Position numbers and translations under genes: made by a program. Below are positions 578-52,283 of a stretch of DNA of 64,000 nucleotides, piece after piece; positions within the stretch are counted from its first letter, which is position 1; every line of letters starts with the position of its first letter. The notes below the pieces were generated by a model. It saw only the letters and a program-made list of their open reading frames with translations. It had not been told where the DNA came from and did no database searches. The DNA is taken from the NCBI RefSeq assembly GCF_016026235.1, contig NZ_CP065613.1; one strand, given 5' to 3'. The DNA comes from Escherichia coli (GTDB taxonomy: Bacteria > Pseudomonadota > Gammaproteobacteria > Enterobacterales > Enterobacteriaceae).

Positions 578-2452
578 ATGAAAGGACAAGAAACTCGTGG
601 TTTTCAGTCAGAAGTGAAACAGCTTCTGCACCTGATGATCCATTCTCTCTATTCCAATAAAGAAATCTTCCTGCGTGAGCTTATCTCTAACGCCTCCGAT
701 GCGGCGGACAAGCTGCGTTTCCGTGCGCTATCTAACCCGGACCTGTACGAAGGTGATGGCGAACTGCGCGTTCGTGTCTCTTGCGATAAAGACAAGCGCA
801 CGCTGACCATCTCCGATAACGGCGTGGGGATGACCCGCGACGAAGTGATTGACCATCTGGGGACTATCGCTAAATCCGGTACCAAATCATTCCTCGAATC
901 CCTGGGTTCTGACCAGGCGAAAGACAGCCAGCTGATCGGTCAGTTTGGTGTTGGTTTCTACTCTGCGTTTATCGTGGCCGACAAAGTGACCGTGCGTACT
1001 CGCGCGGCAGGCGAAAAACCAGAAAACGGCGTCTTCTGGGAATCGGCTGGCGAAGGTGAATATACCGTTGCCGACATCACCAAAGAAGATCGTGGTACTG
1101 AAATCACCCTGCATCTGCGTGAAGGCGAAGACGAGTTCCTCGATGACTGGCGCGTGCGTTCCATCATCAGCAAATACTCCGACCATATCGCGCTGCCGGT
1201 AGAGATCGAAAAACGCGAAGAGAAAGACGGCGAAACCGTTATCTCCTGGGAGAAAATCAACAAAGCGCAGGCGCTGTGGACTCGTAACAAGTCGGAAATC
1301 ACCGATGAAGAGTACAAAGAGTTCTACAAACACATCGCCCACGACTTTAATGATCCGCTGACCTGGAGCCACAACCGCGTTGAAGGTAAGCAGGAGTACA
1401 CCAGCCTGCTGTACATCCCGTCCCAGGCTCCGTGGGATATGTGGAACCGTGATCATAAACACGGCCTGAAACTGTACGTCCAGCGTGTGTTCATCATGGA
1501 CGACGCAGAACAGTTCATGCCGAACTATCTGCGCTTCGTGCGTGGTCTGATTGACTCCAGCGATCTGCCGCTGAACGTTTCCCGTGAAATCCTCCAGGAC
1601 AGCACGGTAACGCGTAACCTGCGCAATGCGCTGACCAAGCGTGTGCTGCAAATGCTGGAAAAACTGGCGAAAGACGACGCGGAAAAATACCAGACCTTCT
1701 GGCAACAGTTTGGCCTGGTACTGAAAGAAGGTCCGGCGGAAGATTTCGCTAACCAGGAAGCGATCGCCAAACTGCTGCGTTTTGCTTCTACTTATACCGA
1801 TTCTTCTGCGCAGACCGTGTCTCTGGAAGACTACGTTTCCCGCATGAAAGAAGGGCAGGAGAAAATCTACTACATCACTGCAGACAGCTATGCGGCAGCG
1901 AAGAGCAGCCCGCACCTGGAACTGCTGCGTAAGAAAGGCATCGAAGTTCTGCTGCTTTCCGACCGCATCGATGAGTGGATGATGAACTATCTGACTGAGT
2001 TCGACGGTAAACCGTTCCAGTCGGTGTCTAAAGTTGACGAGTCGCTTGAAAAACTGGCTGACGAAGTTGATGAGAGCGCGAAAGAAGCGGAGAAAGCACT
2101 GACTCCGTTCATCGACCGTGTGAAAGCCCTGCTCGGCGAGCGCGTGAAAGATGTCCGTCTGACTCACCGTCTGACCGATACGCCAGCGATCGTTTCGACC
2201 GACGCGGACGAAATGAGCACTCAGATGGCGAAACTGTTCGCTGCGGCGGGCCAGAAAGTGCCAGAAGTGAAATACATCTTCGAACTGAACCCGGATCACG
2301 TACTGGTGAAACGTGCGGCAGATACTGAAGATGAAGCGAAGTTCAGCGAGTGGGTAGAACTGCTGCTGGATCAGGCGCTGCTGGCAGAACGCGGCACGCT
2401 GGAAGATCCGAACCTGTTTATTCGTCGTATGAACCAGCTGCTGGTTTCCTGA
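578..2452 (+). CDS. htpG: Hsp90-family molecular chaperone HtpG
   Basis: 624-aa ORF with a GHKL ATPase N-terminal domain; sequence recognised as E. coli HtpG; heat-shock promoter upstream. Confidence 0.97.
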
Positions 2453-2456
2453 TGTC

Positions 2457-2495
2457 ATGCCGGATGACCTTTGTGTCATCCGGCATTTTTCTTTT
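2457..2495 (+). terminator. Rho-independent terminator of htpG
   Basis: Perfect 11-bp stem (atgccggatga / tcatccggcat) with an 8-nt loop, followed by TTTTTCTTTTC, 5 bp after the htpG stop. Confidence 0.8.
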
Positions 2496-2560
2496 CATCA
2501 TCTGCACTTTCCGCAAATTATCTCGCCATTAACCGTTTCAGCCTCAGGTGCCTTTCTTGA

Positions 2561-3277
<717 letters not shown>

Positions 3278-3298
3278 TTCGAAAGCGCGCACGGACAG

Positions 3299-3345
3299 TC
3301 CCCTCGCCCCCTCGGGGAGAGGGTTAGGGTGAGGGGAACAGGCCC
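3299..3345. repeat. GC-rich C-tract/G-tract element containing a G-quadruplex-type motif (GGGG-AGA-GGG-TTA-GGG-TGA-GGGG at 3314-3336)
   Basis: Read directly from the sequence; four G-runs of at least 3 separated by 3-nt loops, preceded by a complementary C-rich run. Confidence 0.5.
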
Positions 3346-3371
3346 GCACAAGCAAACTTATCAGCAATCTC

Positions 3372-3396
3372 AGGCCGGATATTCATTCGGCCTTTT
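3372..3396 (+). terminator. Hairpin (aggccg / cggcct) followed by a T-run, downstream of adk
   Basis: 6-bp GC stem with a 10-nt loop followed by TTTT. Confidence 0.5.
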
Positions 3397-3512
3397 ACAA
3401 AAACCTCAATCTGCGCTATTCCTTTTTCTGATTTGACCTCTCACAGCAATTAGTTCTTCTTCCTCACTTTTCCGCTACAATTATCAACAAGTTGAATCGA
3501 TAAGAGGCGGTA

Positions 3513-4475
3513 ATGCGTCAGACTAAAACCGGTATCCTGCTGGCAAACCTGGGTACGCCCGATGCCCCCACACCTGAAGCGGTAAAACGCTATCTGAAAC
3601 AATTTTTAAGCGACAGACGCGTGGTTGATACCCCACGGTTGTTATGGTGGCCGTTGCTGCGCGGCGTGATTTTGCCGCTGCGCTCGCCGCGTGTGGCGAA
3701 GCTGTACGCCTCGGTCTGGATGGAAGACGGCTCGCCGCTGATGGTTTACAGCCGCCAGCAACAGCAGGCGTTGGCACAACGTTTACCGGATACGCCCGTA
3801 GCGCTGGGCATGAGCTACGGCTCGCCATCACTGGAAAGCGCCGTCGATGAACTCCTGGCAGAGCATGTAGATCATATTGTGGTGCTGCCGCTTTATCCGC
3901 AATTCTCCTGTTCTACGGTCGGTGCGGTATGGGATGAACTGGCACGCATTCTGGCGCGCAAACGTAGCATTCCGGGGATATCGTTTATTCGTGATTACGC
4001 CGATAACCACGATTACATTAATGCACTGGCGAACAGCGTACGCGCTTCTTTTGCCAAACATGGCGAACCGGATCTGCTGCTGCTCTCTTATCATGGCATT
4101 CCCCAGCGTTATGCAGATGAAGGCGATGATTACCCGCAACGTTGCCGCACAACGACTCGTGAACTGGCTTCCGCATTGGGGATGGCACCGGAAAAAGTGA
4201 TGATGACCTTTCAGTCGCGCTTTGGTCGGGAACCCTGGCTGATGCCTTATACCGACGAAACGCTGAAAATGCTCGGAGAAAAAGGCGTAGGTCATATTCA
4301 GGTGATGTGCCCGGGCTTTGCTGCGGATTGTCTGGAGACGCTGGAAGAGATTGCCGAGCAAAACCGTGAGGTCTTCCTCGGTGCCGGCGGGAAAAAATAT
4401 GAATATATTCCGGCGCTTAATGCCACGCCGGAACATATCGAAATGATGGCTAATCTTGTTGCCGCGTATCGCTAA
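3513..4475 (+). CDS. hemH: Ferrochelatase
   Basis: 320-aa ORF recognised as E. coli HemH. Confidence 0.95.
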
Positions 4476-5431
4476 AGCTGAGCGGTAAAGAACTGAGCGC
4501 CGTCGCGAAGAGCCTCGTCGGCGGTTTTCATCATCCGTGAATAATGCAAAAAGGCGTGCAGCGTGCCTGGGTAGAGTTTGAACTCACAGGGCTGCTGATG
4601 CGCCGCTAACGTCTGGTAAAGCAGACGGCTGTCATCCAGCAGCGGATCGAACTCCGCCCCGGCAATAAAACAGGGCGGAACTTCGCGAGTGAGATCATTA
4701 TTAAACAGACAGTAATACGGCGACTCGCGGTCCGCGTCGTTGCTTAAATACGCCTCTTCATACATCTGCAAATCCTGTTGCGTTAAGCCATCCCAGACAC
4801 CGCCCAACAGACGACGAGTCACGGAATCCCGTAATCCGTAAAGCCCATACCACAGCAAAACACCCGCAATTTTACCGCAATCGATCTGTTTATCACGCAA
4901 CCACAACGCACTGGCGAGCGCCAGCATGGCACCTGCGGAATCACCGGCAAAGCCAATGCGGGACATATTGATTTGATAATCCTCCGCCTGTTGGTGGAAA
5001 TGACAACAAGCAGCCACAATTTCCTCTATCGCTTGCGGAAAACGTGCTTCAGGTGAAAGGGTGTAATCAATACCAATCACCGTACATTGGCTGTAGCTTG
5101 CCAGCAGGCGCATGATGCGATCGTGGGTATCGAGATTGCCGAGAATAAAACCGCCTCCATGCAAATAAAATAGCGTCGCTGGGCTATCTGGCTGCGGACA
5201 AAAGAGACGTGTTTCCACCTGCCCATATTTTGTTGGAACCATGTAAGCTCTGGTTGCCATTTCTGGAGCGCCCGCATTCCAGAATCGGCGCTCAAGCGTG
5301 TAATACTGTCGTTGCTCAGCAATCGTTCCCGTTGCGGGCCAGGGCGGTAAATCAGGCTGAAGAGTATTCACAACGGTCTTCATTTCAGCAGAAATAAGGT
5401 CCAGAACAGGTAATTTGTTTTCCGGCTTCAT
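4472..5431 (-). CDS. aes: Acetyl esterase (alpha/beta hydrolase, HSL family)
   Basis: 319-aa ORF with HGGG and GDSAG esterase motifs; its 3' end overlaps the hemH stop by 4 bp (convergent). Confidence 0.93.
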
Positions 5432-5582
5432 ACAAAAACTCCTTTCAAATTACGTCATTGTAAGGAACCACTGCCATGAAAATGCGATCCCGCCTGCTGA
5501 TATTGAAACTGGCTGCGTCTCGCGCGCTCCCGTCAGATTGTGTTAACATTCGCCGCTCAGTTAACCACCCGTAAAAACAACC

Positions 5583-6887
5583 ATGAAATTTCCCGGTAAA
5601 CGTAAATCCAAACATTACTTCCCCGTAAATGCACGCGATCCGCTGCTTCAGCAATTCCAGCCAGAAAACGAAACCAGCGCCGCCTGGGTCGTAGGTATTG
5701 ACCAGACGCTGGTCGATATTGAAGCGAAAGTGGATGATGAATTCATTGAGCGTTATGGATTAAGCGCCGGGCATTCACTGGTGATTGAGGATGACGTAGC
5801 CGAAGCGCTTTATCAGGAACTAAAACAGAAAAACCTGATTACCCATCAGTTTGCGGGTGGCACTATTGGTAACACCATGCACAACTACTCGGTGCTCGCG
5901 GACGACCGTTCGGTGCTGCTGGGCGTCATGTGCAGCAATATTGAAATTGGCAGCTATGCCTATCGTTACCTGTGTAACACCTCCAGCCGTACCGATCTTA
6001 ACTATCTACAAGGCGTGGATGGCCCGATTGGTCGTTGCTTTACGCTGATTGGCGAGTCCGGGGAACGTACCTTTGCTATCAGCCCTGGCCACATGAACCA
6101 GCTGCGGGCTGAAAGTATTCCGGAAGATGTGATTGCCGGAGCCTCGGCTCTGGTTCTCACCTCTTATCTGGTGCGTTGCAAGCCGGGTGAACCCATGCCG
6201 GAAGCAACCATGAAAGCCATTGAGTACGCGAAGAAATATAACGTACCGGTGGTGCTGACGCTGGGAACTAAGTTTGTCATTGCCGAGAATCCGCAGTGGT
6301 GGCAGCAATTCCTCAAAGACCACGTCTCTATCCTTGCGATGAACGAAGATGAAGCCGAAGCGTTGACCGGAGAAAGCGATCCGTTGTTAGCATCTGACAA
6401 GGCACTGGACTGGGTTGATCTGGTGCTGTGCACCGCAGGGCCAATCGGCTTGTATATGGCGGGCTTTACCGAAGACGAAGCGAAACGTAAAACCCAGCAT
6501 CCGCTGCTGCCGGGCGCTATAGCCGAATTCAACCAGTATGAGTTTAGCCGCGCCATGCGCCACAAGGATTGCCAGAATCCGCTGCGTGTCTATTCGCACA
6601 TTGCGCCGTACATGGGCGGGCCGGAAAAAATCATGAACACCAACGGAGCAGGGGATGGCGCACTGGCAGCGTTGCTGCATGACATTACCGCCAACAGCTA
6701 CCACCGTAGCAACGTACCAAACTCCAGCAAACATAAATTCACCTGGTTAACTTATTCATCGTTAGCCCAGGTATGTAAATATGCTAACCGTGTGAGCTAT
6801 CAGGTACTGAACCAGCATTCACCTCGTTTAACGCGCGGCTTGCCGGAGCGTGAAGACAGCCTGGAAGAGTCTTACTGGGATCGTTAA
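5583..6887 (+). CDS. gsk: Inosine-guanosine kinase
   Basis: 434-aa ORF recognised as Gsk (PfkB-type sugar kinase fold). Confidence 0.95.
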   Translation: MKFPGKRKSKHYFPVNARDPLLQQFQPENETSAAWVVGIDQTLVDIEAKVDDEFIERYGLSAGHSLVIEDDVAEALYQELKQKNLITHQFAGGTIGNTMHNYSVLADDRSVLLGVMCSNIEIGSYAYRYLCNTSSRTDLNYLQGVDGPIGRCFTLIGESGERTFAISPGHMNQLRAESIPEDVIAGASALVLTSYLVRCKPGEPMPEATMKAIEYAKKYNVPVVLTLGTKFVIAENPQWWQQFLKDHVSILAMNEDEAEALTGESDPLLASDKALDWVDLVLCTAGPIGLYMAGFTEDEAKRKTQHPLLPGAIAEFNQYEFSRAMRHKDCQNPLRVYSHIAPYMGGPEKIMNTNGAGDGALAALLHDITANSYHRSNVPNSSKHKFTWLTYSSLAQVCKYANRVSYQVLNQHSPRLTRGLPEREDSLEESYWDR

Positions 6888-6901
6888 GTTATCGTCGGTT
6901 C

Positions 6902-6985
6902 GTAGGCCAGCTAAGGCGTTCACGCCGCATCTGGCATTTTGCTCTCAATGCCTGATGCGACGCTGGCGCGTCTTATCAGGCCTAC
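6902..6985. repeat. REP/BIME palindromic units (two, opposite orientation)
   Basis: gcctgatgcgacgctggcgcgtcttatcaggcctac and a degenerate inverse copy between convergent gsk and ybaL. Confidence 0.85.
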
Positions 6986-7016
6986 ATATCCGCGCCTATT
7001 ATCCGGCAACCACCGT

Positions 7017-8693
7017 TTACCCCGTCACCACTTCACCCGCCGGTGGCGTTTCCAGCAGTTCCAGCATAGTACGGGCAATTTCACGCTCGCCCATCACTAC
7101 CTGATTCGCACCACGTTCGGTGATATACGCCACTTCATCGTCATAATGGGCGCGGGCAATAATCTCAATATCCGGATTTTTCGCGCGGGCAGATGCCACA
7201 ATCTCACCCGCTTCATAACCGTTGGGGATCGTCAGGATCAGCCATTTTGCACATTCCAGATGCGCCAGTTGCATAATTTCTTCGTTCGCTGCATTGCCCA
7301 ATACTGCGCGGACCCCGCGCTCTCGCAGCTCATCAACACGGGTTCGTGACGTCTCAATCACCACCAGCGGAATATCAGAGGCGAGCAATTTCTCCCCCAG
7401 CAGGCTGCCTACACGACCGTAACCCACCAATAGCGCATGGTTGCAAATATCCACTGGGATCTGCTTCTCTTCTTCGATTGCCTCTTCCAGCGTCTGCTCT
7501 TCCAGCGTTTCGGTCTTCGCCAGATATTTCTCCAGCAGCGCAAACAGGACCGGATTGAGCATAATCGACAAAATCGCACCTGCCAGTACCAGGTTCTGCC
7601 CGGCTTGCGGCAACAGATCCAGCGCCATGCCCAGTCCCGCCAGGATAAACGCGAACTCACCAATTTGCGCCAGGCTGGCGGCGATAGTTAATGCCGTACG
7701 TTGGGAGTGACCAAACAGTCGCACCAGGAAAAATGCGGCTAACGACTTACCAAACAGAATAATCGCCAGCGTCGCCAGCACTGCCAGCGGTTGCTGAATC
7801 AGAATTAACGGATCAAACAACATCCCGACGGAGACAAAAAACAGCACCGCAAACGCGTCGCGCAATGGCAGCGTATCGTGGGCGGCACGGTGACTCAGTT
7901 CAGACTCGTTCAGTACCATCCCGGCAAAGAACGCACCGAGTGCAAAGGAGACATCAAACAGCTCTACCGCACCAAAGGCAATCCCTAACGCCAGCGCCAG
8001 CACCGACAGGGTAAACAGCTCGCGAGAACCGGTTGCCGCGCTGCGTGCCATAATCCACGGCACCAGACGGCGACCTACCAGCATCATAATGGCGATAAAC
8101 GCGATCACTTTGCCGATGGTGATCCCCATATCGACTGCAAGAGTGGCAAAGCCCACATCGCCCTGTTCCATCATTCCTGCCACTGCGGGCAGCAACACCA
8201 GCGTCAGAACCATTACCAGGTCTTCCACAATCAACCAACCGATGGCGATTTGCCCACGCTGACTGTCAATTAATTGCCGTTCTTCAAGTGCGCGCAGTAA
8301 CACCACGGTACTGGCGGTGGAAAGACATAAACCGAACACGATACCGGTCATTAACGACCAGCCCAGCACGGCAGAGAGCGCCATACCCAGCAGCGTCGCC
8401 ACGGCTATCTGGGCGATCGCACCGGGAATGGCGATGGCCTTTACCGCCATCAAATCCTTCAGCGAAAAGTGCAGACCCACGCCAAACATCAACAGAATGA
8501 CGCCCAGTTCAGCCAGTTCCGGCGCAAGCTTGGTATCGGCAACAAAGCCCGGAGTGAATGGTCCTGCCAGCACACCCGCTAACAGATATCCCACCAGAGG
8601 AGAAATACGTAGTTTATTGGCCAGCATGCCGAGGATAAAGGCGAGCACAAGGCCGCCAACAATGGTGGTGATAAGCGGGGTGGCGTGATGCAT
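7017..8693 (-). CDS. ybaL: CPA2-family K+/H+ antiporter with C-terminal TrkA-N (RCK) domain
   Basis: 558-aa ORF, polytopic membrane N-terminus plus GxGxxG Rossmann C-terminus; recognised as YbaL (KefB-like). Confidence 0.9.
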   Translation of the reverse strand: MHHATPLITTIVGGLVLAFILGMLANKLRISPLVGYLLAGVLAGPFTPGFVADTKLAPELAELGVILLMFGVGLHFSLKDLMAVKAIAIPGAIAQIAVATLLGMALSAVLGWSLMTGIVFGLCLSTASTVVLLRALEERQLIDSQRGQIAIGWLIVEDLVMVLTLVLLPAVAGMMEQGDVGFATLAVDMGITIGKVIAFIAIMMLVGRRLVPWIMARSAATGSRELFTLSVLALALGIAFGAVELFDVSFALGAFFAGMVLNESELSHRAAHDTLPLRDAFAVLFFVSVGMLFDPLILIQQPLAVLATLAIILFGKSLAAFFLVRLFGHSQRTALTIAASLAQIGEFAFILAGLGMALDLLPQAGQNLVLAGAILSIMLNPVLFALLEKYLAKTETLEEQTLEEAIEEEKQIPVDICNHALLVGYGRVGSLLGEKLLASDIPLVVIETSRTRVDELRERGVRAVLGNAANEEIMQLAHLECAKWLILTIPNGYEAGEIVASARAKNPDIEIIARAHYDDEVAYITERGANQVVMGEREIARTMLELLETPPAGEVVTG

Positions 8694-10369: not shown

Positions 10370-12022
10370 ATGAAATTATTGCAGCGGGGCGTGGCGTTAG
10401 CACTGTTAACCACATTTACACTGGCGAGTGAAGCTGCTCTGGCGTATGAGCAGGATAAAACCTACAAAATTACAGTTCTGCATACCAATGATCATCATGG
10501 GCATTTTTGGCGCAATGAATATGGCGAATATGGTCTGGCGGCGCAAAAAACGCTGGTGGATGGTATCCGCAAAGAGGTTGCGGCTGAAGGCGGTAGCGTG
10601 CTGCTACTTTCCGGTGGCGACATTAACACTGGCGTGCCCGAGTCTGACTTACAGGATGCCGAACCTGATTTTCGCGGTATGAATCTGGTGGGCTATGACG
10701 CGATGGCGATCGGTAATCATGAATTTGATAATCCGCTCACCGTATTACGCCAGCAGGAAAAGTGGGCCAAGTTCCCGTTGCTTTCCGCGAATATCTACCA
10801 GAAAAGTACTGGCGAGCGCCTGTTTAAACCGTGGGCGCTGTTTAAGCGTCAGGATCTGAAAATTGCCGTTATTGGTCTGACGACGGATGACACAGCGAAG
10901 TTAGGCAATCCAGAAAACTTCACCGATATTGAGTTCCGTAAGCCCGCCGATGAAGCGAAGCTGGTGATTCAGGAGCTGCAACAGACAGAAAAGCCAGACA
11001 TTATTATCGCGGCGACACATATGGGGCATTACGATAACGGCGATCACGGTTCTAACGCACCGGGCGATGTGGAGATGGCACGCGCGTTGCCTGCCGGATC
11101 GCTGGCGATGATTGTCGGCGGTCACTCGCAAGATCCAGTCTGTATGGCAGCGGAAAATAAAAAGCAGGTAGATTACGTTCCGGGTACGCCATGCAAACCG
11201 GATCAACAAAACGGCATCTGGATTGTACAGGCGCATGAGTGGGGCAAGTACGTTGGTCGGGCCGACTTTGAGTTTCGCAACGGCGAAATGAAAATGGTTA
11301 ACTACCAGCTGATTCCGGTGAACCTGAAGAAGAAAGTGACCTGGGAAGACGGGAAAAGCGAGCGCGTGCTGTACACCCCGGAAATCGCTGAAAACCAGCA
11401 AATGATCTCGCTGTTATCACCGTTCCAGAACAAAGGCAAAGCGCAGCTGGAAGTGAAAATAGGCGAAACCAATGGTCGTCTGGAAGGCGATCGTGACAAA
11501 GTGCGTTTTGTACAGACCAATATGGGGCGGTTGATTCTGGCAGCACAAATGGATCGCACTGGTGCCGACTTTGCGGTGATGAGCGGAGGAGGAATTCGTG
11601 ATTCTATCGAAGCTGGCGATATCAGCTATAAAAACGTGCTGAAAGTGCAGCCATTCGGCAATGTGGTGGTGTATGCCGACATGACCGGTAAAGAGGTGAT
11701 TGATTACCTGACAGCCGTCGCACAAATGAAGCCAGATTCAGGTGCCTACCCGCAATTTGCCAACGTTAGCTTTGTGGCGAAAGACGGCAAACTGAACGAC
11801 CTGAAAATCAAAGGCGAACCGGTCGATCCGGCGAAAACTTACCGTATGGCGACATTAAATTTCAATGCCACCGGCGGTGATGGCTATCCGCGCCTTGATA
11901 ACAAACCGGGCTATGTGAATACCGGCTTTATTGATGCCGAAGTGCTGAAAGCGTATATCCAGAAAAGCTCGCCGCTGGATGTGAGTATTTATGAACCGAA
12001 AGGTGAGGTGAGCTGGCAGTAA
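10370..12022 (+). CDS. ushA: Periplasmic UDP-sugar hydrolase / 5'-nucleotidase
   Basis: 550-aa ORF with N-terminal signal peptide and metallophosphatase motifs (DHH, GNHEF). Confidence 0.95.
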   Translation: MKLLQRGVALALLTTFTLASEAALAYEQDKTYKITVLHTNDHHGHFWRNEYGEYGLAAQKTLVDGIRKEVAAEGGSVLLLSGGDINTGVPESDLQDAEPDFRGMNLVGYDAMAIGNHEFDNPLTVLRQQEKWAKFPLLSANIYQKSTGERLFKPWALFKRQDLKIAVIGLTTDDTAKLGNPENFTDIEFRKPADEAKLVIQELQQTEKPDIIIAATHMGHYDNGDHGSNAPGDVEMARALPAGSLAMIVGGHSQDPVCMAAENKKQVDYVPGTPCKPDQQNGIWIVQAHEWGKYVGRADFEFRNGEMKMVNYQLIPVNLKKKVTWEDGKSERVLYTPEIAENQQMISLLSPFQNKGKAQLEVKIGETNGRLEGDRDKVRFVQTNMGRLILAAQMDRTGADFAVMSGGGIRDSIEAGDISYKNVLKVQPFGNVVVYADMTGKEVIDYLTAVAQMKPDSGAYPQFANVSFVAKDGKLNDLKIKGEPVDPAKTYRMATLNFNATGGDGYPRLDNKPGYVNTGFIDAEVLKAYIQKSSPLDVSIYEPKGEVSWQ

Positions 12023-12029
12023 TCCGAAA

Positions 12030-12053
12030 GTGCCGGATATTTGCATCCGGCAC
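12030..12053. terminator. Palindromic hairpin between convergent ushA and ybaK
   Basis: 9-bp stem gtgccggat / atccggcac with a 6-nt loop, immediately after the ushA stop and before the ybaK stop; no strong T-run. Confidence 0.45.
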
Positions 12054-12058
12054 AATGC

Positions 12059-12553
<495 letters not shown>

Positions 12554-38213: not shown

Positions 38214-39575
38214 ATGTCTTTTGATTTAATCATTAAAAACGGCACCGTTATTTTAGAAAACGAAGCTCGCGTTGTAGATATCGCCGTTAAAGGCGGAAAA
38301 ATTGCTGCTATCGGTCAGGATCTGGGCGATGCAAAAGAAGTTATGGATGCGTCTGGTCTGGTGGTTTCGCCGGGCATGGTTGATGCGCACACCCATATTT
38401 CTGAACCGGGTCGTAGCCACTGGGAAGGTTATGAAACCGGTACTCGCGCAGCGGCAAAAGGTGGTATCACCACCATGATCGAAATGCCGCTCAACCAGCT
38501 GCCTGCAACGGTTGACCGCGCTTCAATTGAACTGAAGTTCGATGCCGCTAAAGGCAAGCTGACTATCGATGCGGCACAACTCGGTGGCCTGGTGTCTTAC
38601 AACATCGACCGTCTGCATGAGCTGGATGAAGTGGGCGTTGTCGGCTTCAAATGCTTCGTTGCGACCTGTGGCGATCGCGGTATCGACAACGACTTCCGTG
38701 ATGTAAACGACTGGCAGTTCTTCAAAGGTGCGCAGAAGCTGGGCGAACTGGGGCAGCCGGTGTTGGTGCACTGCGAAAACGCGCTGATCTGTGACGCACT
38801 GGGCGAAGAAGCGAAACGTGAAGGTCGCGTAACTGCCCATGACTATGTGGCTTCGCGTCCGGTATTTACCGAAGTGGAAGCGATTCGCCGCGTGCTGTAT
38901 CTGGCGAAAGTTGCCGGTTGCCGTCTGCACGTTTGCCATATCAGCAGCCCGGAAGGTGTTGAAGAAGTGACTCGTGCACGTCAGGAAGGTCAGGATGTTA
39001 CCTGTGAATCCTGCCCGCATTACTTTGTACTGGATACCGATCAGTTCGAAGAAATCGGCACTCTGGCGAAGTGTTCACCGCCGATCCGCGATCTGGAAAA
39101 CCAGAAAGGCATGTGGGAAAAACTGTTTAACGGTGAAATCGACTGCCTGGTTTCCGACCACTCACCATGCCCTCCGGAAATGAAAGCCGGCAACATCATG
39201 GAAGCATGGGGCGGTATTGCCGGTCTGCAAAACTGTATGGACGTGATGTTCGATGAAGCGGTACAGAAACGCGGAATGTCTCTGCCAATGTTCGGCAAAT
39301 TAATGGCGACTAACGCAGCAGATATTTTCGGTCTGCAGCAAAAAGGCCGTATCGCCCCAGGAAAAGATGCCGACTTCGTCTTCATTCAGCCGAATAGCAG
39401 CTATGTTCTTACCAATGACGATCTGGAATATCGCCACAAAGTCAGCCCGTATGTTGGCCGTACCATTGGCGCGCGTATCACGAAAACCATCTTACGTGGT
39501 GATGTGATTTACGACATCGAACAGGGCTTCCCTGTTGCGCCGAAAGGTCAATTTATCCTTAAACATCAGCAGTAA
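38214..39575 (+). CDS. allB: Allantoinase
   Basis: 453-aa ORF (cyclic amidohydrolase with metal-binding His residues). Confidence 0.95.
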
Positions 39576-40954: not shown

Positions 40955-42100
40955 ATGAAGATTGTCATTGCGCCAGACTCTTTTAAAGAGAGCTTAAGTG
41001 CAGAAAAATGTTGTCAGGCAATTAAAGCCGGGTTTTCGACCCTCTTTCCCGATGCGCACTATATCTGTTTACCGATAGCGGATGGCGGCGAAGGGACAGT
41101 GGATGCGATGGTCGCCGCGACGGGCGGCAACATCGTGACACTTGAAGTCTGCGGGCCGATGGGCGAAAAAGTGAATGCTTTTTATGGCCTTACCGGCGAC
41201 GGGAAAACGGCGGTGATTGAGATGGCGGCAGCAAGTGGCCTGATGCTGGTCGCACCTGAAAAGCGTAATCCGTTGCTGGCCTCCAGTTTTGGTACGGGGG
41301 AGTTAATTCGTCATGCGCTGGATAACGGCATTCGCCATATTATTCTCGGCATTGGCGGCAGTGCGACGGTCGACGGCGGTATGGGCATGGCGCAGGCGCT
41401 TGGTGTGCGTTTTCTCGATGCCGACGGTCAGGTGCTGGCAGCTAACGGCGGCAATTTAGCGCGCGTGGCAAGCATTGAGATGGAGGAATGCGATCCGCGT
41501 CTGGCGAACTGCCATATTGAAGTAGCATGTGACGTTGATAACCCGCTGGTAGGGGCACGCGGCGCGGCGGCGGTGTTTGGCCCGCAAAAAGGGGCAACGC
41601 CGGAGATGGTCGAAGAGCTGGAACAGGGGCTGCAAAATTACGCCCGTGTTTTACAACAGCAAACTGAAATTAATGTCTGTCAGATGGCGGGCGGCGGCGC
41701 TGCGGGCGGTATGGGTATTGCGGCGGCGGTATTCCTCAATGCGGATATTAAACCGGGTATTGAGATTGTACTGCGGGCGGTCAACCTGGAGCAGGCGGTG
41801 CAGGGCGCAGCACTGGTGATCACAGGGGAAGGGCGCATCGACTCGCAAACGGCAGGCGGTAAAGCGCCGCTGGGCGTTGCGTCGGTGGCGAAGCAGTTTA
41901 ATGTACCGGTGATTGGGATTGCTGGCGTATTGGGTGATGGCGTGGAAGTGGTACACCAGTACGGCATTGATGCGGTATTCAGCATTTTGCCACGTCTGGC
42001 ACCTTTAGCCGAAGTGCTCGCCAGCGGTGAAACCAATCTCTTCAACAGCGCGCGAAATATTGCCTGCGCCATTAAAATAGGTCAGGGAATTAAAAACTGA
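40955..42100 (+). CDS. glxK: Glycerate kinase
   Basis: 381-aa ORF from [11 protein letters not shown] (AAGGA RBS). Confidence 0.93.
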
Positions 42101-42117
42101 CCCTTACCTTTAAAGCG

Positions 42118-42144
42118 GATGCGATTTATTTCGCATCTTTTTTT
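42118..42144 (+). terminator. Rho-independent terminator of glxK
   Basis: Stem gatgcga / tcgcatc with loop tttatt, followed by 7 T. Confidence 0.75.
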
Positions 42145-42147
42145 ACC

Positions 42148-42156
42148 TGAATTTAC
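42148..42156. repeat. Target-site duplication TGAATTTAC (left) of the IS1 insertion
   Basis: Identical 9-mer at 42925-42933 directly flanking the other IS1 end. Confidence 0.9.
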
Positions 42157-42211
42157 GGTAATGCTGCCAACTTACTGATTTAGTGTATGATGGTGATTTT
42201 AAGGTGCTTGC

Positions 42212-42487
42212 GTGGCTTCCATTTCCATCAGATGTCCTTCCTGCTCCGCTACTGAAGGCGTGGTGCGTAACGGCAAAAGCACTGCCGGACATCAGCGCTA
42301 TCTCTGCTCTCATTGCCGTAAAACATGGCAACTACAGTTCACTTACACCGCCTCTCAGCCCGGTACGCACCAGAAAATCATTGATATGGCCATGAATGGC
42401 GTCGGATGTCGCGCCAGTGCACGCATTATGGGCGTTGGCCTCAACACGGTTTTACGTCACTTAAAAAACTCAGGCCGCAGTCGGTAA
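42212..42487 (+). CDS. insA: IS1 InsA (transposition inhibitor / N-terminal part of transposase)
   Basis: 91-aa ORF, GTG start, zinc-finger CxxC...CxxC and HTH; recognised as InsA with several substitutions relative to the K-12 copies as I recall them. Confidence 0.9.
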
Positions 42488-42909
42488 CCTCGCGCATACA
42501 GCCGGGCAGTGACGTCATCGTCTGCGCTGAAATGGACGAACAGTGGGGCTACGTCGGTGCTAAATCACGTCAGCGCTGGCTGTTTTACGCGTATGACAGG
42601 ATACGGAGGACGGTTGTGGCGCACGTCTTCGGTGAACGCACTCTGGCCACACTGGAGCGTCTTCTGAGCCTGCTGTCGGCCTTTGAGGTCGTGGTATAGA
42701 TGACGGATGGCTGGCCGCTGTATGAATCACGCCTGAAGGGAAAGCTGCACGTTATCAGCAAGCGTTACACTCAGCGCATTGAGCGACATAATCTGAATCT
42801 GAGACAACATCTGGCAAGGCTGGGACGGAAGTTACTGTCGTTCTCAAAATCGGTGGAGTTGCATGACAAGGTCATCGGGCATTATCTGAACATAAAACAC
42901 TATCAGTAA
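42406..42909 (+). pseudogene. insB: IS1 insB frame interrupted by an in-frame amber codon (TAG at 42697-42699)
   Basis: The -1 frame relative to insA is open from 42406 but stops at TAG 42697-42699 (...AFEVVV* then MTDGW...); canonical IS1 has TGG (Trp) there as I recall. Confidence 0.7.
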
Positions 42910-42924
42910 GTTGGAGTCATTACC

Positions 42925-42933
42925 TGAATTTAC
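42925..42933. repeat. Target-site duplication TGAATTTAC (right) of the IS1 insertion
   Basis: Identical to 42148-42156. Confidence 0.9.
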
Positions 42934-42936
42934 TAC

Positions 42937-42963
42937 AAAAAAAGCCACGGTATAAACCGTGGC
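42937..42963 (-). terminator. Rho-independent terminator of allE
   Basis: On the minus strand: stem gccacgg / ccgtggc with loop, followed by 7 T (A-run at 42937-42943 on plus). Confidence 0.7.
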
Positions 42964-43005
42964 AAAATCCAACATAGCTAAAAATAATCAGGCGAGTGGT
43001 ATGAC

Positions 43006-43791
43006 TTAAATCTCTACGTCGCGGTTGCAATCTTTCGAGTAAATATAGCTGAACGCTTCACCACGCCCTACGCCATAACCAGCCTGTAAAGAATAAGCGC
43101 CCATAAAGATGTAATCGCCTTTTTTCACCGGGATCCAGTTATTGTCGAGGTTATAAACCCCCTGACCGGAAAGAATATAGGCACCGTGTTCCTGAACGTG
43201 TGTTTCGATATAACCATGGCTGGCACTTGGTGCAAAAGAGAGGATATGCATGTTCATATCAAAACCTAACTCTTTGGGCAGAAAATCCAGCAGGATCACA
43301 TCATCCATACCTTCATAGTGAATGCGTTCCAGTTCGCTGGCATTGCCAGAAACCAGCCACGGTGCATGGCCTTCTACCGGAACATAGCGGCGCTTATATA
43401 AAAAGATTTGGCTGTCTTCGGACTGGGCGTTAACAAACGTCATTAAGGAGCCTGGCGGGCAATAAAGATAGCCACCTTCGCTTAAGGCAAATGTTTTGCC
43501 TTCGGCTTTGGCAGTGATATTTCCAGAGATCACATACAGGAACGTTTCAATGCCTTCGCCACCGAAGCCCTGTTGGTTGCCACCGTTTTGATGCAGTGTG
43601 ACCAGATAATCAACAAAAGAGGCACCCAGCTTTGGCGTGGAGAGGATTGTCGCGTCACAATTTTCAAAGCCCGGAATAATATTTTTTACCAGACCGTCTG
43701 GTGTTAACAGTGCGAAATTACCGTGTTTCACAATCGCACGGTTAGCCAGTAAATCATCGCGGTAACCGGTGACGTTATTTAAATATCCCAT
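43006..43791 (-). CDS. allE: (S)-ureidoglycine aminohydrolase (bicupin)
   Basis: 261-aa ORF recognised as YlbA/AllE. Confidence 0.9.
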   Translation of the reverse strand: MGYLNNVTGYRDDLLANRAIVKHGNFALLTPDGLVKNIIPGFENCDATILSTPKLGASFVDYLVTLHQNGGNQQGFGGEGIETFLYVISGNITAKAEGKTFALSEGGYLYCPPGSLMTFVNAQSEDSQIFLYKRRYVPVEGHAPWLVSGNASELERIHYEGMDDVILLDFLPKELGFDMNMHILSFAPSASHGYIETHVQEHGAYILSGQGVYNLDNNWIPVKKGDYIFMGAYSLQAGYGVGRGEAFSYIYSKDCNRDVEI

Positions 43792-46424: not shown

Positions 46425-48092
46425 ATGATCCACGCCTTTATTAAAAAAGGGTGTTTTCAGGATTCGGTCAGTTTAATGATTATTTCACGAAAACTCAGCG
46501 AATCAGAAAATGTTGATGATGTTTCCGTAATGATGGGTACGCCCGCCAATAAAGCGTTATTAGATACCACAGGTTTCTGGCATGACGATTTTAATAACGC
46601 CACGCCGAACGATATTTGCGTGGCAATTCGTAGCGAAGCGGCGGATGTGGGGATCGCGCAGGCGATTATGCAGCAGCTTGAAGAGGCGCTAAAACAACTG
46701 GCGCAGGGGTCAGGCAGCAGCCAGTCCTTGACGCAGGTGCGTCGCTGGGACAGTGTCTGTCAGAAATTACCCGATGCCAATCTGGCGCTGATTTCAGTGG
46801 CTGGCGAGTATGCGGCGGAGCTGGCGAATCAGGCGCTGGATCGCAACCTCAACGTGATGATGTTCTCCGATAACGTCACGCTGAAAGATGAAATCCAACT
46901 TAAAACCCGCGCGCGAGAAAAAGGCTTGCTGGTGATGGGGCCGGACTGCGGTACGTCGATGATTGCCGGCACGCCGCTGGCTTTTGCTAACGTGATGCCG
47001 GAAGGCAATATTGGCGTCATTGGCGCTTCCGGTACCGGGATTCAGGAGCTGTGCTCGCAGATTGCGCTGGCAGGGGAGGGAATTACTCACGCGATTGGCC
47101 TTGGCGGCCGCGACCTCAGCCGTGAAGTGGGCGGCATCAGTGCGCTAACAGCGCTGGAAATGCTCAGTGCAGACGAGAAAAGCGAAGTGCTGGCATTTGT
47201 TTCAAAACCACCTGCCGATGCTGTGCGTCTGAAAATTGTTAATGCCATGAAAGCAACCGGCAAACCGACGGTGGCGCTGTTTTTAGGTTATACCCCGGCG
47301 GTGGCCCGTGACGAGAATGTCTGGTTTGCCTCCTCGCTGGATGAGGCCGCACGCCTGGCTTGCCTGCTTTCACGCGTTACGGCGCGACGTAACGCGATAA
47401 CGCCAGCCAGCAGCGGATTTATTTGCGGTTTGTATACCGGCGGTACGCTGGCTGCCGAAGCGGCGGGATTACTTGCCGGACACCTTGGCGTGGAAGCCGA
47501 TGATGCCCATCATCACGGCATGATGCTCGACGCCGATGGTCACCAGATTATTGACCTCGGCGATGATTTCTACACAGTCGGGCGTCCCCATCCGATGATC
47601 GACCCAACCTTACGCAACCAGTTAATTGCCGATCTCGGCGCTAAACCGCAAGTGCGTGTGCTGCTGCTTGATGTCGTGATTGGCTTCGGTGCGACTGCCG
47701 ATCCTGCCGCCTCGCTGGTAAGCGCCTGGCAAAAAGCCTGTGCTGCGCGTTCAGACAATCAACCACTGTATGCCATTGCCACGGTGACAGGCACTGAACG
47801 TGACCCGCAATGCCGCTCGCAGCAAATCGCCACGCTGGAAGATGCGGGGATTGCGGTCGTGAGTTCGCTACCGGAAGCCACCTTGCTGGCGGCAGCGTTA
47901 ATTCATCCGCTCTCACCTGCCGCACAGCAACACACACCGTCATTACTGGAAAACGTCGCCGTGATTAACATCGGATTACGCAGTTTTGCGCTGGAGCTAC
48001 AAAGCGCCAGCAAACCGGTTGTGCATTACCAATGGTCGCCAGTCGCCGGCGGCAATAAAAAACTGGCTCGTTTATTAGAACGTTTGCAATAA
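46425..48092 (+). CDS. fdrA: FdrA (CoA-binding / succinyl-CoA synthetase alpha-like domain protein)
   Basis: 555-aa ORF recognised as FdrA. Confidence 0.85.
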   Translation: MIHAFIKKGCFQDSVSLMIISRKLSESENVDDVSVMMGTPANKALLDTTGFWHDDFNNATPNDICVAIRSEAADVGIAQAIMQQLEEALKQLAQGSGSSQSLTQVRRWDSVCQKLPDANLALISVAGEYAAELANQALDRNLNVMMFSDNVTLKDEIQLKTRAREKGLLVMGPDCGTSMIAGTPLAFANVMPEGNIGVIGASGTGIQELCSQIALAGEGITHAIGLGGRDLSREVGGISALTALEMLSADEKSEVLAFVSKPPADAVRLKIVNAMKATGKPTVALFLGYTPAVARDENVWFASSLDEAARLACLLSRVTARRNAITPASSGFICGLYTGGTLAAEAAGLLAGHLGVEADDAHHHGMMLDADGHQIIDLGDDFYTVGRPHPMIDPTLRNQLIADLGAKPQVRVLLLDVVIGFGATADPAASLVSAWQKACAARSDNQPLYAIATVTGTERDPQCRSQQIATLEDAGIAVVSSLPEATLLAAALIHPLSPAAQQHTPSLLENVAVINIGLRSFALELQSASKPVVHYQWSPVAGGNKKLARLLERLQ

Positions 48093-50187: not shown

Positions 50188-51077
50188 AAACACTGGTTGT
50201 AGCTCTTGGGGGCAACGCCTTACTCCAGCGCGGTGAGGCGCTGACGGCGGAAAATCAATATCGCAATATCGCCAGTGCTGTCCCCGCGCTGGCGCGCCTG
50301 GCCCGTTCTTATCGGCTGGCGATTGTTCACGGCAACGGGCCGCAGGTGGGGCTGCTGGCATTACAGAATCTGGCGTGGAAAGAGGTAGAACCGTATCCGC
50401 TGGATGTGCTGGTAGCGGAAAGTCAGGGGATGATTGGCTATATGCTGGCGCAGAGTTTGAGCGCACAGCCGCAGATGCCGCCTGTCACGACGGTGCTGAC
50501 GCGCATTGAAGTTTCGCCTGATGATCCGGCGTTTTTGCAGCCAGAGAAGTTTATCGGTCCGGTTTATCAGCCAGAAGAACAAGAGACACTAGAAGCGGCT
50601 TACGGCTGGCAGATGAAACGTGATGGTAAATATTTACGCCGGGTGGTGGCGTCTCCGCAACCGCGTAAAATTCTCGACAGCGAAGCCATCGAGTTGTTGC
50701 TCAAAGAGGGGCATGTGGTGTTTTGCAGTGGCGGCGGCGGTGTGCCTGTGACGGATGACGGAGCAGGGAGTGAAGCAGTGATTGATAAAGATCTCGCCGC
50801 TGCGTTGCTCGCCGAGCAGATTAATGCCGATGGACTGGTGATCCTCACCGATGCTGATGCGGTATATGAAAACTGGGGAACGCCGCAGCAACGTGCCATT
50901 CGCCATGCCACACCGGATGAGTTAGCGCCATTTGCCAAAGCCGATGGTTCGATGGGGCCGAAGGTAACGGCGGTGAGTGGTTATGTCAGAAGCCGTGGTA
51001 AACCCGCGTGGATTGGGGCGTTATCGCGAATTGAAGAGACGCTGGCGGGCGAAGCGGGGACCTGTATTTCGCTGTAG
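50184..51077 (+). CDS. ybcF: Carbamate kinase-like protein
   Basis: 297-aa ORF of the amino-acid kinase family; overlaps the ylbF stop by 4 bp. Confidence 0.88.
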
Positions 51078-51085
51078 TGATGAGA

Positions 51086-51198
51086 GCATCCGGCAATCGG
51101 CGCACCATGCCTGATGCGACGCTTGACGCGTCTTATCAGGCCTACAATGGGTACCGGATCGGTGTAGGCCGGATAAGGCGTTCACGCCGCATCCGGCA
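51086..51198. repeat. REP/BIME units between convergent ybcF and purK
   Basis: gcctgatgcgacgcttgacgcgtcttatcaggcctac and gtaggccggataaggcgttcacgccgcatccggca. Confidence 0.9.
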
Positions 51199-51215
51199 AT
51201 CAAATGAGCACCAGG

Positions 51216-52283
51216 TTAACTGAACTTACTCTGTGCCCACATCACGCCGCTGGCATACTCCGGCGGCAGCAGCGGGATTAAGGCTTCCAGCGTCGCGGAC
51301 AGACGCGATGTGTCGCTGTCGGTCAAATTCAGATGCCCCACTTTACGGCCCGGACGGACTTCTTTGTCGTACCAGTGCAGATGCACCAGCGGCAGTTTCA
51401 GCCAGTCATAATTCACATCGCTACCAATCAGATTGATCATCACCGACGGATTATTCACCACTGGTTGCGGTAACGGCAGATCGGTAATCGCCCGCAGATG
51501 TAGCTCAAACTGGCTGATGCTGGCACCGTTTTGTGTCCAGTGACCGCTGTTATGCACACGCGGTGCCAGTTCGTTGATCAACAGACCTTGCGGGGTGACA
51601 AAACACTCCATTGCCATCACGCCTACATAGCCCAGCTCCTGCATAATCGCCGAAAGCATCTCTTCGGCTTGCGCTTGCTGCTGCGCATTGGCCTGCGGGA
51701 AAGCGACGCTGGTGCGCAAAATACCGTCCTGATGCAGGTTATGCGTCAGCGGATAAAACACGGTGCTGCCATCAAAGCCGCGCGCGCCAACCAGCGACAC
51801 TTCACCAGAGAAGTTTATGCCCTGCTCGACAATACATTCGCCGTAGCATTCAGCCGGTAACTGTTCGGTTTCATCGGCGCGTAAACGCCATTGACCGCGT
51901 CCGTCATAGCCACCAGTGCGACGCTTAACAATCGCCAGCTCACCTAAACGATCAAACACCGCAGGCCACTCGCTGCGTTCGGCAAGTAACTGCCACGGTG
52001 CAGTCGGCAGGTGGAGCTTATCGAAAAGCTGCTTCTGAGTCAGACGGTCAGCAATAATCGGGAACACATCGCGGTTCACAAAGGCCGGATGGCGCGCCAG
52101 CTCGCGGGTTAATGCGGTTTCCGGCCAGCGTTCGATCTCAGCGGTAATCACGCTTTGTTGAAAAGGCACCGCCGCCGGTTCAGCGTCCAGCCCGACCGGC
52201 CAGACAGCAATGCCTAACGGTTCGCCGGCCTGGCGCAACATACGGCCTAACTGCCCGTTCCCGAGGACGCAAACCTGTTTCAT
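51216..52283 (-). CDS. purK: N5-carboxyaminoimidazole ribonucleotide synthase
   Basis: 355-aa ATP-grasp ORF recognised as PurK. Confidence 0.95.

Follow-up and report, generated by a model that had tools for sequence, protein, structure and literature searches.

An IS1 element between two convergent terminators

The glxK and allE genes of this Escherichia coli genome converge on a short intergenic spacer that is occupied by an IS1 element. Within the window, by which we mean the whole 64-kb stretch of DNA that was analysed, the two genes, their terminators and the parts of the element are arranged as follows.

40955–42100, + strand: glxK (glycerate 3-kinase), intact open reading frame ending in TGA at 42098–42100; named from the 99.9% identical FDAARGOS_943 record
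42117–42144, + strand: predicted glxK intrinsic terminator, intact, an 8-pair hairpin and a run of 7 T; terminator scan and fold
42148–42156, no strand: left copy of the target-site duplication, 9 bp, TGAATTTAC; single-copy in the empty site of E2865
42157–42924, + strand: IS1F-type IS1 element, 768 bp; 99.5% identity (4 mismatches) to fec-linked IS1F and 91.3% (67 mismatches) to IS1A
42157–42179, + strand: IRL, the left terminal inverted repeat, GGTAATGCTGCCAACTTACTGAT; 20 of 23 positions equal the reverse complement of the right end
42212–42487, + strand: insA, intact, 91 aa, zinc-finger/HTH DNA-binding protein; open reading frame and NCBIfam matches
42406–42909, + strand: insB' reading frame, interrupted by an amber codon; translation
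42463–42469, + strand: A6C (AAAAAAC) −1 programmed frameshift motif, intact, at IS position 307
42902–42924, + strand: IRR, the right terminal inverted repeat, ending in ATCAGTAAGTTGGAGTCATTACC
42925–42933, no strand: right copy of the target-site duplication, 9 bp, TGAATTTAC
42937–42963, − strand: predicted allE intrinsic terminator, intact, an 8-pair hairpin (6 G–C pairs) and a run of 7 T; terminator scan and fold
43006–43791, − strand: allE ((S)-ureidoglycine aminohydrolase), intact open reading frame, 261 aa; named from the FDAARGOS_943 record

Both hairpins with their T-runs qualify as intrinsic (Rho-independent) terminators, at which termination itself is predicted. The glxK structure folds at −12.2 kcal/mol (z = −4.6) and the allE structure at −15.4 kcal/mol (z = −4.45), and in each case 0 of 200 shuffled sequences folded as well. 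The original gap between the two terminators was 15 bp, ACC-TGAATTTAC-TAC, and the element now lies 3 bp past the glxK T-run (ACC) and 3 bp ahead of the allE terminator (TAC, then the A-run). These positions, taken from the terminator scan, agree with the first-pass annotation, which had placed the insertion between convergent terminators, 3 bp from each, in a spacer of about 15 bp. IS1 is known to prefer AT-rich targets and to generate duplications of 8–9 bp (PMC5009759). At a GC content of 20%, the 25-mer centred on the target falls in the most AT-rich 0.3% of 25-mers from the surrounding 5 kb (0.7% for the window), in keeping with this preference.

The junctions read ...TTCGCATCTTTTTTTACC TGAATTTAC / GGTAATGCTGCC on the left and GGAGTCATTACC / TGAATTTAC TACAAAAAAAGCCACGG... 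on the right. The 9-mer TGAATTTAC occurs just twice on both strands of the 64-kb window, and the distance between its two copies is exactly 768 bp. InsA is identical to the InsA of IS1A at 87 of 92 positions (the stop codon counted as one position), and it matches positions 1–81 of NCBIfam NF033558 (transpos_IS1) as well as the NF050000 zinc-binding domain. The insB' translation, with its stop read as W, matches the full Pfam DDE_Tnp_IS1 model (PF03400; E = 1.1e-73, residues 37–167), and the InsA, InsB-N and InsB-C fragments cover positions 1–81, 75–153 and 156–199 of NF033558, respectively. The element thus belongs to the IS1 family by its length, its ends, its insA/insB' organization with the A6C motif, its protein homology and a 9-bp duplication that is single at the empty site, and the 768-bp IS1 originally called at 42157–42924 is borne out in its coordinates, inverted-repeat ends, genes and protein-family matches.

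An empty site carrying a single TGAATTTAC, which had been proposed as a check in reference genomes, was found in E. coli E2865: the reconstructed 309-bp empty site is identical there at 309 of 309 positions and reads ...CATCTTTTTTTACCTGAATTTACTACAAAAAAAGCC..., with one TGAATTTAC. The perfect 9-bp target duplication claimed from the letters of the window is therefore genuine, being present on both sides of the element and once at the empty site. A repeat finder reported a longer direct repeat of 14 nt, TTACCTGAATTTAC, at 42143–42156 and 42920–42933, and we rejected it as a 14-bp duplication. The additional 5 nt, TTACC, stand immediately left of the duplication and also form the terminus of the IS1 right end; since the empty site has a single TTACC, the second one belongs to the element, which leaves a true duplication of 9 bp. 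Weak end-to-target homology has been reported for IS1, and the extra 5 nt may represent either such homology or chance.

An IS1F variant with an interrupted transposase frame

The element is identical at 764 of 768 positions to the fec-linked IS1F copy of STEC17-190. Two features within it bear on its subtype and history.

42501–42519, + strand: four clustered synonymous differences from pure IS1F, at IS positions 345, 357, 360 and 363, all IS1A-like
42697–42699, + strand: in-frame TAG amber codon in insB', in place of the Trp codon TGG that IS1A and intact IS1F-like copies have

The element belongs to the IS1F subtype by its nucleotide identity of at least 99% to fec-linked IS1F and by the amber codon that it has in common with that copy. 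An autonomous element would encode a complete InsAB', whereas here the TAG ends the fusion after 162 of its 232 aa, close to position 62 in the 131-position DDE_Tnp_IS1 model. On these sequence grounds the element is an IS1F variant, a defective IS1-family member that is predicted to be non-autonomous. The original label of 'IS1' therefore holds at the level of the family and needs amending at the level of the subtype, which is IS1F with an in-frame TAG and not consensus or autonomous IS1. The RefSeq annotation of FDAARGOS_943 carries the same description ('IS1-like element IS1F family transposase; programmed frameshift; internal stop'). The full 768-bp sequence is matched at 100% only in FDAARGOS_943, and its best match on PLSDB plasmids is 99.3% identical.

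We considered, and ruled out, that the TAG arose recently and only in the window copy. The 79 nt around the codon recur at 100% identity in 2303 records, MG1655 included, making it a hallmark of IS1F. The TAG-bearing copies of STEC17-190, ATCC 8739, E2865 and Nissle 1917 are all the static fecIR-ykiE-IS1F, annotated with 'internal stop'. The fec-linked IS1F of STEC17-190, the only such copy whose flanks were read, has no target duplication.

The four clustered IS1A-like nucleotides probably represent a gene-conversion patch. FDAARGOS_943 has pure IS1F at this locus, and the patch is borne instead by a copy between idi and yqfG; because the patch thus occupies different loci in the two genomes, at least one conversion between IS1 copies must have followed their split. 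The same 101-nt stretch is also present in other IS1 types, namely IS1X2-like and plasmid IS1 copies, which rules out the patch as a unique marker. IS1 is known as a mosaic element, and the presence of the stretch in other IS1 types fits this. The locus would accordingly offer a natural example of short-patch exchange between IS1 copies by gene conversion.

A rare junction in a recurrent target

The empty site was found uninterrupted, in one place, in 5305 of 5426 complete E. coli genomes, contrary to the possibility, raised in the first-pass annotation, that all reference strains carry IS1 here. A 300-nt query across the left junction was matched at full length and 100% identity in 1 of the 5426 genomes, that of FDAARGOS_943, and the exact 30-nt left junction had no matches in species-representative genomes or in JGI metagenomes. 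The first-pass view that MG1655 has no IS1 at this position was correct in that none lies between its glxK and allE genes, but MG1655 does not offer a simple empty site: its 227-bp spacer is a REP-containing variant that lacks both TGAATTTAC and the glxK T-run because a segment of about 116 bp with REP-like palindromes replaces CTTTTTTTACCTGAATT. The longer, REP-type spacer was present in about half of the evenly spaced rows sampled from the empty-site search.

Over 7.3 kb, the window and FDAARGOS_943 differ at 7 positions, 4 of which are within the IS, and the window is without two elements of FDAARGOS_943, an IS1A in allB and an IS5-family element in fdrA. Because the insertion is common to the window and FDAARGOS_943, it predates the split of these two genomes; it is also older than the later IS1A and IS5-family insertions of FDAARGOS_943 and than the 4-nt conversion patch. 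Its presence in both genomes qualifies the first-pass description of the insertion as recent enough for intact duplications. The insertion could act as a lineage marker for the FDAARGOS_943 group.

The spacer has been entered by IS1 more than once. A left-junction search identified 21 genomes with IS1 just downstream of glxK, and the precise mapping of 13 loci yielded at least 14 independent IS1 events. Those in the spacer are listed below.

IS1F, + strand, duplication TGAATTTAC: window and FDAARGOS_943, in the spacer
IS1A, − strand, duplication CTGAATTTA: STEC388, in the spacer, 1 bp from the IS1F site
IS1A, + strand, duplication CGCATCTTT: CX12 and CX08, 12 bp upstream, in the glxK T-run
IS1A, duplication TAAGAGTGC: EC06, in the REP-type spacer
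Truncated IS1 with TEM-1: JE86-ST05 and JE86-ST02, in the spacer
IS1-bounded deletions starting in the spacer: Ec1120, ET846/600029 and EcPF16/KFu022

Six further IS1 events, with differing duplications, lie in the interior of allE. At least 8 independent events thus have a junction in the 128–227-bp spacer, against 6 in the approximately 420–520 bp of allE in which they are detectable, which gives the spacer an event density about 3–5 times that of allE (rough binomial P = 0.002–0.08, by the spacer length assumed). As controls we took two other spacers, gsk-ybaL (6798–7106) and ybcF-purK (50992–51300), with the same 309-bp design; both contain REP-type repeats (median of 10 and 38 places per genome, respectively), and their interruption counts are not comparable with those of the glxK–allE spacer because these multi-copy repeats lie inside them.

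Taken together, these counts describe the spacer as a recurrent, permissive, AT-rich IS1 target and not as a demonstrated hotspot. A stronger reading, in which the spacer is a true IS1 hotspot specified by its sequence or structure, is in our view possible but doubtful. It would account for the eight or more spacer events, which include an IS1A in the opposite orientation only 1 bp off (STEC388) and another 12 bp upstream (CX12), but selection against insertions in allE and not against those in the spacer could produce the same excess on its own, and we estimate a probability of about 0.1 that two of the four short-spacer events fall within 1 bp of each other by chance. Mutation-accumulation data, moreover, reveal no favoured region and no IS1 target motif past AT-richness (PMC5009759). 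Short AT-rich gaps between convergent terminators appear to gather mobile DNA, with several IS1 elements here and a REP-containing segment in K-12.

Mobilization of the element and its place among known IS1 copies

We reasoned that the element is most likely to have been moved by a transposase other than its own, given that its InsAB' stops at the amber codon after 162 of 232 aa. The source copy was already TAG-bearing, because the window copy has the TAG, 677T and 703T in common with the K-12-type fec-linked IS1F. By contrast, an intact IS1F-like element, identical in M21170 and on a Shigella dysenteriae plasmid, has TGG and differs at 677 and 703. In FDAARGOS_943, the copy between idi and yqfG is a second one, 100% identical to the window copy with the TAG included, and is flanked by its own 9-bp duplication, GGAATAGAG. 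The defective element has therefore moved at least twice in this lineage. FDAARGOS_943 has IS1 in at least 40 places, among them an intact IS1A that is a possible helper, and no other IS1, hence no helper copy, lies within the 64-kb window.

Published work describes both the immobility of IS1F and the conditions under which it moves. In K-12, IS1F is essentially immobile, and no IS1-mediated insertions were obtained from a strain whose IS1 copies were IS1B, C, D and F alone (PMC12428005); in mutation-accumulation lines, the consensus class accounted for 233 new insertions and the single-copy divergent IS1 class for 3 (PMC5009759). When InsAB' was supplied in trans, IS1F accounted for 44% of 48 sequenced insertions, and the same study reports that the IS1 transposase acts mainly in cis and that its action in trans needed overexpression in the laboratory (PMC12903888).

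The account that we favour, and consider likely as a whole, is that a TAG-bearing IS1F moved into the AT-rich gap, most probably in trans, and has since been a neutral passenger. An IS1F, a defective and divergent IS1 that normally remains immobile beside the fec operon, would have transposed into the 15-bp AT-rich gap, where repair of the staggered 9-bp cut usual for IS1 would have produced the TGAATTTAC duplication. A putative helper, another IS1 copy of the same cell, most likely supplied the transposase that acted in trans on the intact IS1F ends. The insertion would then have been inherited vertically, most likely as a neutral passenger, by the lineage common to the window and FDAARGOS_943, and gene conversion would later have passed a short patch between the element and another IS1 copy. 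Against this account stand the absence of a helper copy from the window, the preference of the IS1 transposase for acting in cis and the conversion seen in the lineage, which could in principle have written the TAG into a once-intact copy after insertion.

That possibility belongs to an alternative in which the element was autonomous at insertion, an intact (TGG) IS1F-like IS1 that became defective later by point mutation or by conversion from fec-linked IS1F. Intact IS1F-like copies that differ from the window copy by only 7 nt exist and are mobile with their own duplications (M21170, in allE; S. dysenteriae ATCC 12021, on a plasmid), and gene conversion among IS1 copies is seen in this very lineage, in the 4-nt patch by which the two genomes differ at this locus. 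Nevertheless, we regard such a later loss as improbable. Apart from the TAG, positions 677 and 703 of the window copy also hold the two further bases specific to K-12 IS1F, and the idi–yqfG copy of FDAARGOS_943 is identical to the window copy. Later loss would therefore require conversion over a long tract at each of two separate loci, and a source that already had the TAG would only have to be copied.

In this favoured account of an IS1F moved from a TAG-bearing source, the insertion is most likely neutral for the flanking genes, a judgement drawn from the flanking features: glxK, allE and both terminators are whole, as the initial verdict of 'probably neutral' had anticipated. The outward promoter activity suggested at the same time was not supported, as a promoter scan returned no promoter-like site across either junction at the scan threshold. 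Within the IS, the scan recovered the expected insA promoter region in IRL (42164–42191) and a weak promoter-like site at 42764–42792 (9 of 12 matches) that faces allE; by eye, the hybrid candidates at the ends are poor (left, TTGGCA-17-GGTAAA; right, TTGGAG-17-TACAAA). Read on the + strand, the allE hairpin runs into AAAATCC instead of a T-run, so rightward transcripts from the IS would meet no efficient intrinsic terminator. The IS1 promoter in IRL is weak and is repressed by InsA.

That the insertion is functionally important and selected, through antisense transcription into allE-allC-allD from IS or hybrid promoters or through altered termination of the convergent operons, is very unlikely: insA and insB' are oriented toward allE, the site at 42764–42792 points outward, the + strand hairpin would be a poor stop and FDAARGOS_943, the sister genome, shows decay of its allantoin cluster, but the junctions carry only the poor hybrid candidates, both native terminators are untouched, the IRL promoter would be held down by an insA that is intact in the window copy, and an occurrence in 1 of 5426 complete genomes plus the window gives no sign of spread.

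In conclusion, the insertion is genuine and rare, yet it belongs to an ordinary and well-known class of event, and the RefSeq annotation of the sister genome already includes it. Our analysis adds to the first-pass annotation a nonsense-bearing IS1F that probably moved in trans, a conversion patch, a spacer that differs in K-12 and repeated hits in that spacer. For the biology of the allantoin genes the insertion is of little consequence, because both genes and both terminators are untouched. For IS1, it would be a natural example of a nonsense-mutant IS1F that still spreads, with two new sites and clean duplications in one lineage, and would complement the recent laboratory work in which IS1F moves only with transposase in trans. 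A broader proposition, that in IS1-rich natural lineages 'dead' IS1F is regularly amplified by the transposase of other copies and that the glxK–allE gap is in addition a genuine IS1 hotspot, is speculative, and we would sooner bet against the pair than for it; if it were true, the locus would be the natural counterpart of the laboratory finding that IS1F is the most mobile non-consensus IS1 when transposase is provided in trans.

Among known elements, the closest is IS1F of K-12 (the divergent 'type 4' IS1, at fecIR/ykiE), which is likewise 768 bp long, with identical ends and 764 of 768 positions in common, and which shares with the window copy the amber codon in insB', the intact insA and the A6C motif. 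The window copy differs from the fec-linked IS1F in its location between glxK and allE, in its perfect 9-bp duplication, which the fec-linked copy is without, and in its four clustered IS1A-like synonymous bases. Consensus IS1 (IS1A/IS1E of K-12, autonomous) has the same length, insA/A6C/insB' layout and terminal repeats, and likewise makes a 9-bp duplication and prefers AT-rich targets (PMC5009759). Compared with IS1A, however, the window copy has 67 nucleotide differences (91.3% identity), its IRL starts with GGTAATG and not GGTGATG, and its transposase frame, open in IS1A, is closed by the TAG. The intact IS1F-like IS1 of Shigella plasmids and E. coli M21170 is 99.1% identical and has the same ends, but it has TGG in place of TAG, C in place of T at 677 and 703, a full-length InsB' frame and no IS1A-like patch. 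Finally, the miniIS1 cassette (PMC12903888) also combines intact ends with the lack of a functional transposase of its own and is moved by that of another copy, as was probably the case for the window copy; unlike the cassette, the window copy is full length, keeps insA and is disabled by one nonsense codon and not by an internal deletion.

Variants of the glxK–allE spacer and recurrent IS1 insertion

In K-12 and B strains, the spacer between glxK and allE is 227 bp long (5322–5548 of the MG1655 locus, and likewise in BL21), whereas in the window it comprises 42101–42156 plus 42934–43005, on either side of IS1F. In the 227-bp spacer, around 116 bp with REP-like palindromes stands in place of CTTTTTTTACCTGAATT; as a result, the glxK hairpin has no T-run and the 9-mer targeted by IS1F is absent. 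This REP-type spacer was found in about half of the genomes sampled. Two other short convergent spacers of the window contain multi-copy repeats, presumably REP/BIME-type elements, for which the median number of matching sites in an E. coli genome is given:

Window 6888–7016: gsk–ybaL spacer, median 10
Window 51078–51215: ybcF–purK spacer, median 38

Two further genomes carry copies of the consensus element IS1A close to the IS1F insertion point, and these insertions are independent of the window event (positions are those within each strain's locus):

STEC388, 1449–2216: IS1A, opposite orientation to IS1F, 1 bp from its insertion point, duplication CTGAATTTA
CX12, 1435–2202: IS1A, same orientation as IS1F, 12 bp from its insertion point, duplication CGCATCTTT, inserted within the glxK T-run

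The spacer is also the starting point of IS1-bounded deletions in Ec1120, ET846 and EcPF16, which have removed either allE–allC–allD up to fdrA or part of allE and allC, leaving at each locus a single IS1 without a matching duplication. In JE86-ST05, a truncated IS1 followed by a TEM-1 β-lactamase gene and a recombinase gene (1452–2901 of its locus) lies within a REP-type glxK–allE spacer, so that this intergenic region has also received a resistance insertion in the chromosome.

Direct repeat, probable conversion patch and the sister genome

Immediately left of the target, the native sequence TTACC is identical to the final 5 nt of the IS1 right end, which extends the direct repeat around the window IS1F from 9 to 14 nt (42143–42156 and 42920–42933); this match may reflect chance or end-to-target homology. 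The window copy also carries four clustered, synonymous IS1A-like bases (42501–42519; IS positions 345, 357, 360 and 363) that are missing from the glxK–allE IS1F of the sister genome FDAARGOS_943 and present in its idi–yqfG copy. Judged from these sequences, the distribution implies that one IS1 copy converted another once the two genomes had diverged.

In FDAARGOS_943 the allantoin cluster is undergoing decay, and all three affected genes are intact in the window (FDAARGOS_943 positions are those within its locus):

allB, FDAARGOS_943 1431–3569 (window 38214–39575): split by IS1A
allE, FDAARGOS_943 7000–7785 (window 43006–43791): internal stop
fdrA, FDAARGOS_943 10419–12300 (window 46425–48092): split by an IS5-family element

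The amber codon and an intact relative

The ATG directly 3′ of the IS1F amber codon (window 42697–42702) encodes the Met of the conserved MTDGW, and re-initiation there could conceivably yield a separate C-terminal fragment, predicted at 69 aa. A strain that retained only non-consensus IS1 copies gave zero IS1-mediated insertions (PMC12428005), which argues against autonomous IS1F activity.

Intact IS1F-like elements, identical in sequence and with separate duplications, occur at two loci:

E. coli M21170, chromosomal locus, 1807–2574: 8-bp duplication GAAAATCC
Shigella dysenteriae ATCC 12021, plasmid locus, 301–1068: 9-bp duplication AACAAGGGG

This element, which differs from the window copy at 7 nt and has TGG where the window has TAG, is likely to be an active progenitor of IS1F.
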